63,915 nucleotides of DNA, filler included, from Thelocarpon superellum (GCA_026025795.1; 3 parts of 3 records of this genome joined end to end with filler, not necessarily neighbours in it); one strand, 5' to 3'. Shown: positions 42,812 through 47,750, numbered from the whole stretch's first letter. Notes: a model not told the origin generated them from the letters alone. Numbers and translations are program-made.

Positions 42812-44164
42812 TCACTCCGTCTCTTCTGTGATCGCACTGCCTTTGACCGCGTAGCCGCCACGAGCATCTTGGATCCAGACCTCGAATGCTTTCCGAGGGG
42901 GAACACTCGAGGCGGCGTTTTGCCCCGGTGGACTCGTCGCCTCTCCGGTCCCGCTCTTCTCCCCCTTGTCTCCTTCCCCCGTCATCCTGTCATCTGCCTT
43001 TCCCTTTGCTCCCTCGCCCGTCGCCCTCCCACAAACGGTAAGTTCATCCCCGGCATACAAAGGCGCGAGGTTACGATATTCAAGATCGAGCACGCGCCGC
43101 CCAGCCCCGCCGCCGCTATCACCATGCAGCCGGGAAGAGCTTAGCAGCGAGAGGAGCAGCGTCAGGCTCAGCGGACCATGCACGAGCGTCGTGGGTTGGG
43201 ATTCGACGCGCCGGCAGTACTCCGGGTCCAGGTGGATCAGGTGCGCGTTGAATGTCAGGGCGCTGAAGCGGAACAGGAGGCCCGGGGTTGGCGTCATGCT
43301 TTGGCTGAATGTCGGCGCGCGGTGAGCTGTACGGAGGGAGCGAGAGCGTGAGCGAGAACTTGTCGGGGTCTTATGGAAGGTCAAATGCGTGGGCGAGAGG
43401 GACTTACGGCGGAGAATGCGTGGCTCGGTTGCAAGTGGGCGCCGGCGGGCTTCATGTAGGAAGGCGAGGTCTCGTCTCTCTACTATGGCAGCAGACGTAT
43501 CGCCAAAGATATCATCGTCTCTGTTGTCTCCATCTCCGTTCAATCGCAGCCGGGTGTCGGCGTCGGATTCGCCCTCCTCGGACACGCCGATGCGTCGCTC
43601 AATGCGCACGAAGACCGTCTTTCCAGGCTCGTCGTTGGCGTCCCAGCCCCCGTCCTTGACGACCACGTCCCGGATCCGCTCCACGCATGCGACGCGGCTC
43701 CCGTCGAGACGCAGCTGCCGCTGCCGCGACGGGTGAAAGGACACGCGACCGCCGGCCCACAGTCGGCGGGTGTAAGGTGGGCCGGGCGAATGCAACGGGT
43801 CGGTTCCGTCTGGGAGAAGGGCATTGGAGGGAACTTGGGCGGGGAAATACACGAGATGGTGACCTGCGGGGAGGACGTTTGCAGATCTAGTGGAAGGAAG
43901 AAGGAAAGGGAGAGAAGCGGTTTGGGTTGCAAGACGGGGGTAGAGAAACGGCAGAAGAGAAATATCCAGTAGGTGGGAGGGAGTGGGAGATAGATAGTCA
44001 AAGATCACGGGCAGGCGTCGCGACGTAAGAGCAGCCCGGAGTTCAGAAGCTTGGCTTGAAGTCAAACGACGCGCACTCTTTGCAGACCGGCTTGGAATGG
44101 AAAGCCGGGATGCTCTCCCAAGGGGACTCCCAAGGGGACCACGCACTTGTTGCAGGGCAGACAT
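42812..44164 (-). CDS. HTD2: Hotdog-fold hydroxyacyl-thioester dehydratase, Htd2-like (mitochondrial FAS II); probable in-frame intron 43407-43327
   Basis: Arg/Ser-rich presequence-like N-terminus; LPAGHHLVYFP, DGTD, RRLWAGG, LLFRFSALTFNAHLIHLD and LVHGPL. Confidence 0.8.
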   Translation of the reverse strand: MSALQQVRGPLGSPLGRASRLSIPSRSAKSARRLTSSQASELRAALTSRRLPVIFDYLSPTPSHLLDISLLPFLYPRLATQTASLPFLLPSTRSANVLPAGHHLVYFPAQVPSNALLPDGTDPLHSPGPPYTRRLWAGGRVSFHPSRQRQLRLDGSRVACVERIRDVVVKDGGWDANDEPGKTVFVRIERRIGVSEEGESDADTRLRLNGDGDNRDDDIFGDTSAAIVERRDLAFLHEARRRPLATEPRILRRKSLSPTHLTFHKTPTSSRSRSRSLRTAHRAPTFSQSMTPTPGLLFRFSALTFNAHLIHLDPEYCRRVESQPTTLVHGPLSLTLLLSLLSSSRLHGDSGGGAGRRVLDLEYRNLAPLYAGDELTVCGRATGEGAKGKADDRMTGEGDKGEKSGTGEATSPPGQNAASSVPPRKAFEVWIQDARGGYAVKGSAITEETE

Positions 44165-44720
44165 GGCTGTGGAGATGGTGCAAGACCGTCCTGGAAGATC
44201 CAGTAGAGGCTTTCGAATGTCATCACGTCTAGAAGCGAAGTCGCATTTACATCTACATCGCGCCATTCTGGAGGTGGAGCTGAGATGAGGCTGCCCGATC
44301 GATACCTATGTCATTGAGTCGCAGCTGTGGATTCACTTGAGCTTCTGACCCGTAGTCCTTCATGTCACCTGATTACCTAGCTAATGCTTGACTCGAGCCT
44401 TTCGTCTCGGACATGCTCGCCAAATGGAACCAAGCGACAGAAAAAGTCTGGATCGATTGGATACAATAACCACGGAACTCTTCTGACTGAACCTTGCCTT
44501 ACTTTTCCAAGATTTCGGCGGATTGAGAACTAGAGCTAGCTGTCTATTTACCCGATTTCTCGTGTCCCTGTACCTCCTGGACGGGCAGCGGGTAATGTGA
44601 AGACGGCAACAGGCTTGACAGCCCTCGGTCACGTACATAGATTACCTAGCTAGAGCGAGCGGAAGCATGGTATGCGATCGATGGCTTCTGTCGCCACAAG
44701 TCCAACGGATGACTCGTGCC

Positions 44721-45054
44721 TCAAGCCATCATCCAAGCACCGGCACCCCACCCCATATTTCCCGGCGCGGCATAACCACCAGACGCGTGGAGCCTCGTCG
44801 GCGACCACGTGCCAGTGGCATCCACATCTGTGCGTGATCCATCAGCAGGTGCGACGGCGCATCAGCCCACGACGCTTACCACTTAGTATCTTGATGAGAG
44901 CGGAGCCTCCGTCTCCACCGGGGCGGCACATGGGCTTTGCTATGCTGGCCCGGAACGTGGCGTCAAAGTCCTTGTTGTGATGACGACCCGTCAGGCCCTC
45001 GGAAGAGGGGATGTCTGGAAACAGTGCCTCGCGGTGGGCGAGGTGACCAAACCG
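44721..45054 (-). promoter_or_regulatory. eRF1 3'UTR readthrough extension containing a 52-nt intron (44879-44828)
   Basis: The stop TGA (45057-45055) is followed by CGG and 58 open codons, then GTAAGC..GCTGAT..CAG, then 35 more open codons to a TGA at 44723-44721. Confidence 0.75.
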
Positions 45055-46477
45055 TCAATCATCGTAGAACTCGTCCTCGTCGTCAAAGTCGGCCAGTTGC
45101 TCGAAGTTGACCTTATATCGCAAGATGGCGCCGATTCCACCGAACCCCTTGACGAATTGGTTGCCCTCGCTGGATCGGTCCGACACAAACTCCAGATTGG
45201 CGCCAAAGTCCTTGTACTTCTCCGCCAGCCATTCCAGGAACGGGGCCTGGTCGACGACTTCCATCTCCTGTCCCGTCTCGTTGTCCATGAACATGTCGCG
45301 ATTCAACCCTTCCTGGCTCTTGCTGGTATGCAAGATCACCTCGGATCCCGAGGCCGTCTTAAGCACCCAGCGCGTGATGTCGAGATTCTCAAAGACAATC
45401 AGGATCTCGCACGCCCCCAGCTCCAAGGCCTTGAGCGTATCGTCAATGCCGTAGCAGACCTTGCCGCTGTCCTGGCTGATCTCCTCAAAATAGCTGCTGA
45501 TCAGTTTCTTTTCCTGGATGAACTTGACGTTGCTCAACGTCTCAGCGGAGAGGTCGATGGCCTGGTTGAAACCGCTCTCGCCGCCATAGGAGACGTCGAC
45601 GACCTTGATGACCTTGGCCTGGAGACGCTGGTCAAACATGTCGGACTGGTTGAGGTCGTTCTTAAAGTCGGCCGATCCCGCGAGAATCAGGCCGGCCACG
45701 TTGACCTTGTCGCTGGTGATGAAATTCTGCACGGCCAATTCGGACACCTTCCGCACGTAGTTGTGCCGTTTCTCCTCGCGCAGACGGGCAAAACGTAGTG
45801 CCGACTGCCCACCGCGACCATGCTTCTTGGGAAGATCGACGGAGAACTTGTGCACCACGTCGCGCGTGTTACCACTGAGCGTGCCAAAGAGAGCGCCGTT
45901 CCCGTCCATGATGATGAAGCCGAATTTCTGGTCCGACTCCAGCAACTCGCTCAGCGCCTCCGTGTGGAACTTGTTGTCACACAGATAGAGCGAAGTGTTA
46001 ATGGGCTTGAAGGGTTCAAAGTCGATGTTGATCTTGCGCTCTTTGCCTTCGGACGTGATGATCTCGCCACAGTAGACGACAAGGCCATTGGGCGGCACCT
46101 TGGAATACAGCTTCAGCCGCTGCTGAGTCGAAGTGATGGCCGACAAGACGGAGAGACGATTGACCCGCGATTTGATATTGGACGCCGTGCCCTAGACGAA
46201 TCAGATGGCGATACCAGCGTGACGAGTACGTGGACTCACAAATTCTTCGGCCAGCATCTTGGCCGCTCGGGAGACCTGGTCCTTAGGCGCTGTGTACGCA
46301 GATGGGTGAGCAGGCGTGTCGCCCAAACGGCCCGAGAGGTCGAGGAGAAGACTTACGGATGATGAGGGAGATCATGGACGTGCCATTGCCGCGGGCGGCT
46401 TCGAGGCGCTTGATCAGCTTCTTGACCTTCCAGATCTCGATGTTCTTCTCCGCCTCGTTGGCCTGGGGAGCACTCAT
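45055..46477 (-). CDS. SUP45: Eukaryotic peptide chain release factor 1; exons 46477-46357, 46289-46240, 46191-45055
   Basis: [19 protein letters not shown] (NIKS), [14 protein letters not shown] (GGQ) and [11 protein letters not shown]. Confidence 0.98.
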
Positions 46478-47650
46478 CGTGCCGGCCCGAGCAGGGTGAG
46501 ATGGCGCGGACAGCACAAACGGAGGCGAAACGGTCCTGGGAGAGCCGCGTCCGTGGGACGGCCTCGACGACGGATGCCCAGTGACCTCGGGCTGATGGAA
46601 TTCGTACGTTTCGTCCGATGATAGAGGTTGGTGGGAATGGCGGGGCAAATCTTCTACGAATCATCGGTTGTGGGCTTGTGGGGTGGCTTCCGCAATCCAA
46701 AATTTCGCCCGCCGGTCGCGCCGAGGTGAGCCCTACCCGCAATGCTACCACTGGAATACTTATCCGTTCACCTGCATTTGTCGCCGATCCAAAGTCACCT
46801 TCAAGTATCTACGCACAAGTAAACGGGCTTTTCGGGTAGGGCAATCTCTGGCACTTGCGCCTCCAGTTCACCGCATCCGAAGCGTTCGTGCTTCGTTCGG
46901 CACCCATAGCTCATACAGCGGAATAGCGGGATCCTACGCTGGTACCAGGTGTCATCTTTGTGCGTTGGGCCACCACCGCCACTCCATCAACAGCTAACCC
47001 TAGGCAGACAAGGAGAACAAAGCTCGGAATTTTTGGTATCGCCTGTGGGCCGCTGAGTATAATCCAGCAACAACGCAATCTCTTGTCCAGCGCAGTCACG
47101 CCCCATCCGTCGGCCTGACTCGTGGTACTTTCCTGGGATTTACCTTTGGTGTATTGCCTGAGTCCGCGACGCCCCACGCCTATCGGTCTGGGAAACGTAC
47201 GATACGAGCGCTCTAGCTATATGATACGGCGGACTCACCACGGTTCAGCCACACGACGGAGAACTCCGTGCGGACTCTCAAGCGTGTTCGGATGGATGAA
47301 CGGTCTGACTACTTGTACACGACCGGCGCCAGGGTGATACTGGCCCCAAAAGGCCCCCGGCTTGGTGACGAGTGCGTCATGCTCTAGAAGCTGCCGCACC
47401 TGCGGAAGGCAGCGGATCCGTCGAGACGCGACCAGCTTGCCATGTGCGAAACCAGCGCGGAGTTGTCCCTCGGTGATGGGCGGCCCAAGAGCTCTTCGCC
47501 TGGTTGGTCCGTCTGCTTATCTGTTGTGCCTGCTGCCGCCTGGGCCACGTTAGTCCGCCGTATGTGGCGAGCCGTGCGCCCGTTTTCGAACATCGGCGCT
47601 CCAACCGCGCTTACGTATTCGCAAACTCGTCCGCGGGGGCTTCCATTGCT

Positions 47651-47750
47651 NNNNNNNNNNNNNNNNNNNNNNNNNNNNNNNNNNNNNNNNNNNNTTAATT
47701 AATTAANNNNNNNNNNNNNNNNNNNNNNNNNNNNNNNNNNNNNNNNNNNN
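47651..47750. other. Artificial contig-joining linker (N44-TTAATTAATTAA-N44)
   Basis: Identical to the linker at 23821-23920. Confidence 0.97.

Follow-up and report, generated by a model that had tools for sequence, protein, structure and literature searches.

The eRF1 locus

The release factor eRF1 is encoded on the minus strand of a 63,915-nucleotide (nt) stretch of DNA from Thelocarpon superellum (GCA_026025795.1), which consists of three parts of three records joined with filler and is called the window here. The joined gene model comprises three exons and yields a protein of 435 amino acids (aa) free of internal stops (Table 1). Exon 3 matches the Pfam domains eRF1_1, eRF1_2 and eRF1_3 (PF03463, PF03464, PF03465) in this order, with E values from 5e-15 to 5e-48. 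By domain order and length (~435 aa) the gene is a full-length eRF1. The model is identical in 405 of 435 residues to the public eRF1 model P0002 from Chaenotheca gracillima (Coniocybomycetes). The nearest named eRF1 proteins (92-93%) belong to Coniocybomycetes, Lichinomycetes, Geoglossomycetes and Lecanoromycetes, followed by Eurotiomycetes and Dothideomycetes at 89-91%. Judged by these proteins, the gene belongs to Pezizomycotina and probably to a class other than that of Neurospora crassa.

A prediction made earlier from the window, referred to as the original prediction, described at the 3' end of this gene the layout of an autoregulatory switch between stop codon readthrough and nonsense-mediated decay (NMD) of the mRNA. 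The described layout is exact to the base. It comprises a UGA-CGG stop, a frame open for 58 codons (175 nt), a candidate intron at 44879-44828, 35 further codons and a second UGA, in total an extension of 93 codons. A hairpin 11 nt after the stop, which is the most conserved part of this layout, had gone unnoticed. On balance, and with more confidence than doubt, we regard the 3' end as an orthologue of an autoregulatory 3' untranslated region (3'UTR) acting by readthrough and NMD, composed of a programmed-readthrough module and a 3'UTR intron. The putative module consists of UGA-C in a CGG-UUU context and a G+C-rich hairpin of 6 base pairs (bp) 11 nt downstream.

Table 1. Features of the eRF1 gene and its 3' region in the window.
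Feature	Position	Strand	Description	Basis
eRF1 coding region	45058..46477	-	435 codons	Pfam domains and joined gene model
eRF1 exons	46477-46357, 46289-46240, 46191-45058	-
eRF1 coding-region introns	46356-46290, 46239-46192	-	67 nt and 48 nt, both GT..AG
eRF1 stop and context	45049..45057	-	UGA (45057-45055) followed by CGGUUU (+4 to +9)	sequence; comparison with relatives
Conserved hairpin	45027..45043	-	CCUCGC-CCACC-GCGAGG, 6 bp, 5-nt loop; begins 11 nt after the stop	folding and conservation
Second conserved block	44988..45018	-	CCAGAC at one end, CUGACGG at the other; in the window a small CCCUC/GAGGG hairpin separates the two	conservation
Putative readthrough extension, first part	44880..45054	-	58 codons + 1 nt (175 nt)	open reading frame listing
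Candidate 3'UTR intron	44828..44879	-	52 nt, phase 1, GTAAGC..GCTGATG..CAG; donor 175 nt after the stop	intron model; relatives
Putative extension, second part	44721..44827	-	35 codons counting the split codon, and stop UGA (44723-44721)	open reading frame listing
Second, weaker intron-like site	44577..44636	-	GTACGT.., 60 nt in length, 85 nt downstream of the second stop	score 15.9

Stop codon context

Metagenome contigs were scanned with the exon-3 protein. The search matched 597 stretches, of which 523 were confirmed and the best 80 kept as loci for comparison (L001 and following). These divide into 42 close loci (at least 80% identical) and 38 distant ones (69-75%). After correction for a terminal intron, 40 of the 42 close loci show the stop context TGA-C; the remaining two carry TGA-T (L036) and TAG-A (L038). 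The distant loci show TGA-C in eight cases and TAA in 20.

The original prediction named UGA-CGG as a known leaky context, in agreement with its listing among type II readthrough motifs (Firth et al., 2011, PMC3159437) and with the retention of UGA-C in close relatives. UGA-CGG and UGA-CUA are the viral type II motifs, often accompanied by a 3' stem-loop after a spacer of 7-9 nt, and such stem-loops raise viral type II readthrough 3- to 14-fold (PMC3159437). A C at position +4 interferes with decoding by eRF1, and SUP45 of Saccharomyces cerevisiae ends in UGA-AUA-AAU, which serves as an efficient terminator (PMC6868437). Judged by its sequence, the eRF1 stop of the window is in a readthrough-promoting context.

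A phase-1 intron interrupts the final Asp codon (G|AT) of many relatives, 2 nt upstream of the UGA, so that the last exon begins AT-UGA-C. Loci with this terminal intron include L004, L007, L009, L011, L012, L015, L017, L023, L028, L029, L031, L032, L034, L036, L040, L043 and others; eRF1 of the window has none. Eight distant loci (L045, L049, L050, L060, L072, L073, L074 and L077) carry UGA-C followed by 15-48 open codons. They belong to the group at 69-75% identity, which consists mostly of short contigs with an intronless coding sequence (CDS). The leaky UGA-C context may reach beyond Pezizomycotina.

A search of positions 44300-45200 against Rfam (E <= 1) matched no family, the selenocysteine insertion sequence (SECIS) included. 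Selenocysteine recoding of the UGA was rejected on the missing SECIS match. Fungi are not known to possess the selenocysteine machinery.

Conserved RNA elements downstream of the stop

The hairpin of the window folds with -10.1 kcal/mol (z -3.28), a stability equalled by one of 200 shuffled sequences. Its motif, CCUCG..CGAGG, is shared by the window and 39 of the 42 close relatives (40 of 43 loci in all). The alignment comprises 38 rows, after removal of L005 and L019 (identical to L004 and L018) and of L026, L030 and L038 (motif absent). It yields the consensus CCUCG(C/U)..(G/A)CGAGG for the inverted repeat, 11 nt 3' of the stop, and the interval between stop and stem is free of insertions and deletions in all rows. 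The loop varies freely in sequence; 32 rows have a loop of 5 nt and six rows one of 8 nt, and both lengths keep the frame of the extension. Among 37 distinct rows the closing pair is C-G in 26, U-G in six and U-A in four, while the other five pairs hardly vary. Synonymous sites in both arms are fixed. Leu is always CTC (34/34) and Glu always GAG (34/34), while the intervening Ala uses all four codons, which points to selection on the RNA. The minimum-energy folds of L026 and L030 show another hairpin, of 5 bp (GGCUC/GAGCC), in about the same location and no more stable than shuffled sequences.

A second conserved block follows the hairpin. Among 37 loci its synonymous sites are likewise nearly fixed, with Pro CCA in 18 of 18, Leu CTG in 19 of 20 and Thr ACG in 15 of 17 cases. 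The block, CCAGA..(~20 nt)..(AU)CUGACGG, is also present in L004, L007, L008, L009, L011, L014, L023, L027, L032, L035, L039 and L040. The UGACGG within it reproduces, in a different frame, the context of the stop. In 13 loci RNAalifold proposed a weakly covarying pairing of CAGA with UCUG. This pairing was rejected as a second helix, being weakly supported and partly broken in the window. A limited search of the open-text literature on a hairpin or 3'UTR intron in fungal eRF1 returned only citations of Kurilla 2020; on that basis the hairpin is not to be called unpublished.

Open frame after the stop

With the candidate intron removed, the frame of the window runs for 93 codons to the second UGA, 104 nt beyond the junction. 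If the intron is retained, the frame closes after 70 codons, within the intron itself. The first ~23 codons align with the extensions of relatives. BLASTN of the window 3'UTR against the relatives' loci gave matches confined to the initial 23-37 nt downstream of the stop; no relative aligned over the intron. The extension matched no Pfam family.

In 38 non-identical loci the frame behind the stop has a median of 71 open codons (minimum 48); the corresponding values of the alternative frames are 16 and 2. In 36 loci the post-stop frame exceeds both in length (Wilcoxon p ~5e-8). Of 37 loci compared with shuffles of their own 450 nt, 36 reached p < 0.2 and 12 reached p < 0.05 (1.6e-15 when combined by Fisher's method). 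The loci are mutually related metagenome contigs and these p-values are therefore inflated, yet the direction is unambiguous.

Introns and tail peptide in relatives

Introns were scored with donor, branch and acceptor matrices built from 60 distinct homology-defined introns of related eRF1 loci, using intron-only columns. An earlier model with exon-side columns (score 13.6, reached by 30% of nulls) was dropped because the training introns come from three homologous sites, which makes these columns encode local codons. Control sequences were 182 stretches of 330 nt in coding sense, coding antisense and 3' antisense orientation. The candidate intron of the window, in which GCTGATG occurs twice, scores 18.0, the best value within 640 nt after the stop. 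Candidates of at least equal score with a donor 140-290 nt in and a length of at most 70 nt occur in 2.2% of the controls. By motif, the candidate intron of the window is only moderately convincing.

Enough downstream sequence for an intron search was available in 34 loci. In 13 of them, against an expectation of ~1.7, the best candidate exceeds the 95th percentile of the controls (18.3); the donors are located 146-280 nt downstream of the stop. In 33 of the 34 loci the following in-frame stop is situated beyond the junction or no more than 37 nt before it; the exception, L013, has only a weak candidate. The best candidates of L007, L009, L032 and L040 begin at offsets 184-187, compared with 175 in the window. 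Those of L007, L009 and L032 are in phase 1 and 53-54 nt long, that of L040 is in phase 0 and 75 nt long. The candidate of the window has the phase of the relatives' supported introns and a similar length and place. The prediction of an intron more than 50 nt after the stop is supported in relatives, where strong candidates recur and the next stop takes a position not expected to trigger NMD; in the window it concerns a candidate of moderate motif.

The extensions of 22 of 37 loci hold a tail motif, (R/G)(P/R/S)S.(L/V)R(N/S/H)(V/M), and a stop follows within 4-10 codons in 19 of these 22. The motif is also present in public eRF1 models from Aspergillus and Emergomyces. In L001, L004, L007, L008, L032 and L039, removal of a phase-1 intron of 51-195 nt, preceded by a conserved ..(L/V).H|G and situated just ahead of the motif, brings motif and extension into one frame. 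The intron length in L001, L004 and L032 is not a multiple of three, so that the motif is in frame only after splicing. The fitting intron of L039 measures 195 nt, above the length limit of the search with the intron model. This frame test is the strongest evidence for introns in the relatives.

In one clade (L012, L013, L015-L018, L020, L022, L028, L029, L031, L033, L034, L043, L003 and L010) the extension ends in a near-invariant RPSPLRS(V/M).., with a stop within five codons and a candidate donor ~12-28 nt later, a plant-like arrangement. In L037 (1491-1900) the extension ends in ..SHG and is followed by GCAAGT..CTAAC..TAG, possibly a GC-AG intron at the same ..H|G place. The idea that L037 is a cDNA, raised by its missing 5' introns, was rejected, since it has no poly(A) tail and continues into other sequence.

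Several public eRF1 models contain the extension. Those from Geoglossum, Emergomyces, Diplodia and Aspergillus wentii (P0014, P0044, P0083 and P0117) measure 477-497 aa, since stop and hairpin are spliced out and the CDS continues into the extension. In the metagenome model P0035 (574 aa) the UGA is read as W. These models are probably annotation artefacts; possibly they reflect an alternative acceptor within the hairpin loop. The expectation that gene callers would miss the extension was half right, as some models include it by splicing out stop and hairpin. The proposed comparison of eRF1 3' regions across fungi strengthens the layout, with stop context, hairpin, open frame, position and phase of intron candidates and position of the next stop conserved among the relatives.

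Proposed mechanism

Most ribosomes would terminate at the eRF1 UGA and release the normal 435-aa protein. Splicing of the candidate intron would leave a junction 175 nt downstream, and an exon-junction complex (EJC) deposited there would flag the mRNA for NMD. When eRF1 is scarce, readthrough of the UGA would increase, aided by the C at +4 and by the hairpin at the mRNA entrance. Ribosomes that read through would cross the junction, remove the complex and terminate 104 nt past the junction. Stabilization of the mRNA and a rise in eRF1 would follow. With abundant eRF1, readthrough would drop and the mRNA would be degraded. We infer all of these steps from the sequence layout together with what is described for plants and Neurospora.

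Several observations weigh against this mechanism. The spacer of 11 nt between stop and hairpin exceeds the 7-9 nt of the viral cases (PMC3159437). Covariation in the hairpin is modest (0.104, compared with 0.082 in shuffled alignments, and reached by 10 of 500 shuffles), because five of the six pairs hardly vary. In dinucleotide shuffles of the spliced 3' region of the window, which has 60% G+C, a frame open for at least 58 codons occurred with P = 0.185 and one of at least 93 codons with P = 0.066. The inflated p-values of the related loci belong here as well. The intron score of 18.0 corresponds to the 13th percentile of true introns (leave-locus-out, median 21.0), and 6.0% of the controls hold, at any position, a candidate that scores no lower. 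The G+C content at third codon positions (GC3) is 0.80 in the eRF1 CDS and 0.67 and 0.57 in the two parts of the extension, which indicates little codon bias. A search for the tail motif in all frames of the window gave no significant match, the best scores being -1.1 in the spliced frame and 6.5 in another frame (P = 0.13). Finally, the second intron-like site would, if real and spliced, place a junction beyond the reach of readthrough, more than 50 nt downstream of the second stop. Its score of 15.9 is below the 95th percentile of the controls, and it overlaps a TATGTA element, which may instead belong to 3' end formation. In the window alone, the open frame and the intron motif exceed chance only marginally. 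The layout owes its significance to its conservation in relatives.

Alternative explanations

Readthrough may serve mainly to produce an isoform of eRF1, extended at the C-terminus, that has its own function; the intron would then be an ordinary one within recoded coding sequence, and control by NMD secondary or absent. The peptide is indeed kept with varying codons, e.g. P-(D/E)-(I/L/V) by way of GAC, GAT, GAA and GAG, and Ala by way of three to four codons. The tail motif of 22 of 37 loci, found again in the Aspergillus and Emergomyces models, is held in frame across the intron in six loci. Against an isoform stand the missing tail motif and the low codon bias in the extension of the window, together with the lack of a Pfam match to the extension. 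The most strongly conserved positions are fixed at synonymous sites, which speaks for RNA rather than protein, and the extended eRF1-1 of plants, with an unconserved extension, was inactive in termination assays (PMC5397192). We consider an isoform as the main product unlikely. It would be compatible with readthrough/NMD control, and the conserved tail of the relatives leaves room for an additional role.

Less probable still is a coincidence, in which a G+C-rich sequence has by chance yielded the open frame and the GT..AG of the window, termination proceeds normally, and the conserved hairpin and stop context have another role, for instance in termination pausing, in the stability of the mRNA or in forming its 3' end. 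The statistics of the window alone are weak (P 0.185 for 58 codons; an equal intron in 6% of the controls), its peptide behind the junction is unconserved, and CCTCG..CGAGG inverted repeats occur six times in the window, where 1.7 are expected. Chance is opposed by the relatives' post-stop frame, which in each of the 38 loci extends over 48 open codons or more and in 36 exceeds the other two frames. The intron candidate of the window is the top-scoring one within 640 nt after the stop and matches the supported introns of relatives in phase and place. UGA-C is almost fixed in close relatives, in contrast to the efficient UGA-AUA-AAU of SUP45 (PMC6868437).

A bypass of the stop by alternative splicing, from the phase-1 intron in the last Asp codon of relatives to a downstream ..GCAG acceptor in the hairpin loop with the CDS joined in frame, can hardly be credited: many relatives have the terminal intron, L009 and L032 carry, by reading of the alignment, a GCAG in the loop at a frame-keeping position, and P0014, P0044, P0083 and P0117 join CDS and extension without the stop, but the window is excluded by its lack of a terminal intron and of an AG in the loop, loci that lack this intron conserve hairpin and UGA-C to the same degree, and the public models may be artefacts of gene callers.

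Comparison with known systems

The preferred reading, a readthrough module coupled to a 3'UTR intron, has its closest counterpart in Neurospora crassa. Its erf1 is reportedly autoregulated by readthrough and NMD through a 3'UTR intron (Kurilla et al. 2020; Zhang & Sachs 2015), and the former study is reported to propose similar eRF1 circuits in many fungi. Both systems concern the same gene in the same subphylum, with a stop in a readthrough-prone context, a 3'UTR intron (in the window a candidate) more than 50 nt downstream and an extension that reaches or crosses the junction. The window differs in that its nearest named eRF1 proteins are not from Sordariomycetes and its layout is known from sequence.

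The original prediction also cited plants, and rightly so, as the circuit of seed-plant eRF1-1 has been published (Nyiko et al., 2017, PMC5397192). The proposal that readthrough strips the EJC is shared with the window. Seed plants use UAG-CAAUCA (type I, CARYYA), and the available text mentions no hairpin, whereas the window has UGA-CGG and a hairpin. The readthrough-NMD 3'UTR of seed-plant eRF1-1 has its next stop fewer than 25 nt upstream of the intron; in the window the frame continues across the junction. The plant extensions are unconserved, and plants keep a second, unregulated eRF1 paralogue (PMC5397192).

With viral type II signals (PMC3159437) the window shares UGA-CGG, a structure at a fixed short distance and synonymous-site conservation 3' of the stop. 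Viral stems have 11-12 bp or more and enclose ~100 nt, whereas the hairpin of the window has 6 bp and a loop of 5 nt. The element of the window also differs in residing in a cellular gene and in being coupled to a putative intron. By layout, hairpin and UGA-CGG together share the logic of the viral type II signals, though more compactly built and with a wider spacer. In bacteria, the +1 frameshift of RF2 (prfB) is an analogous case of a release factor that senses its own level by recoding at its own stop (analogy in PMC5397192). Recoding of prfB makes the functional protein, whereas in the window normal termination makes eRF1 and recoding is proposed to protect the mRNA only.

Neighbouring sequence

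Downstream on the same strand, positions 42812-44305 hold a long open reading frame (ORF) with a weak match to MaoC-like dehydratases (E 0.0016, below the Pfam cut-off). Between the second eRF1 stop and the upper end of this ORF lie ~420 nt. An ORF on the plus strand (44654-44980) gave no match in a Pfam search. Immediately upstream of the eRF1 promoter region, at ~47550-47700, a run of N coincides with a drop in G+C content to 36-40% and looks like an assembly gap. Scans for promoters and terminators of bacterial type were discarded as uninformative, the host being a fungus.

Significance

The claim of the original prediction that the circuit extends to another lineage is weak as a novelty, since the same layout is present in ~40 Pezizomycotina-like loci. 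The window adds one fungal lineage to a known layout, for which tests are already reported from Neurospora and plants, and opens no new question. A wider interpretation is speculative and, in our estimate, rather doubtful. It holds that the eRF1 stop of Pezizomycotina is embedded in a lineage-wide recoding element (UGA-C, 11-nt spacer, CCUCG/CGAGG hairpin, CCAGA..CUGACGG block) that has no Rfam family. The tail peptide would be functional, its motifs being kept across classes and across the junction, and the lineage of the window would have kept the RNA element and lost the tail motif.

Public fungal models that splice out the eRF1 stop are probably an annotation error worth knowing. The comparative set offers clean mutable targets for reporters, namely the hairpin at fixed spacing, the second block and the phase-1 intron that splits the tail motif. 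A self-correcting circuit of a leaky stop and an NMD-triggering intron is among the few known cases in which recoding is coupled to mRNA surveillance. The dosage of eRF1 determines the fidelity of reading at all stop codons.

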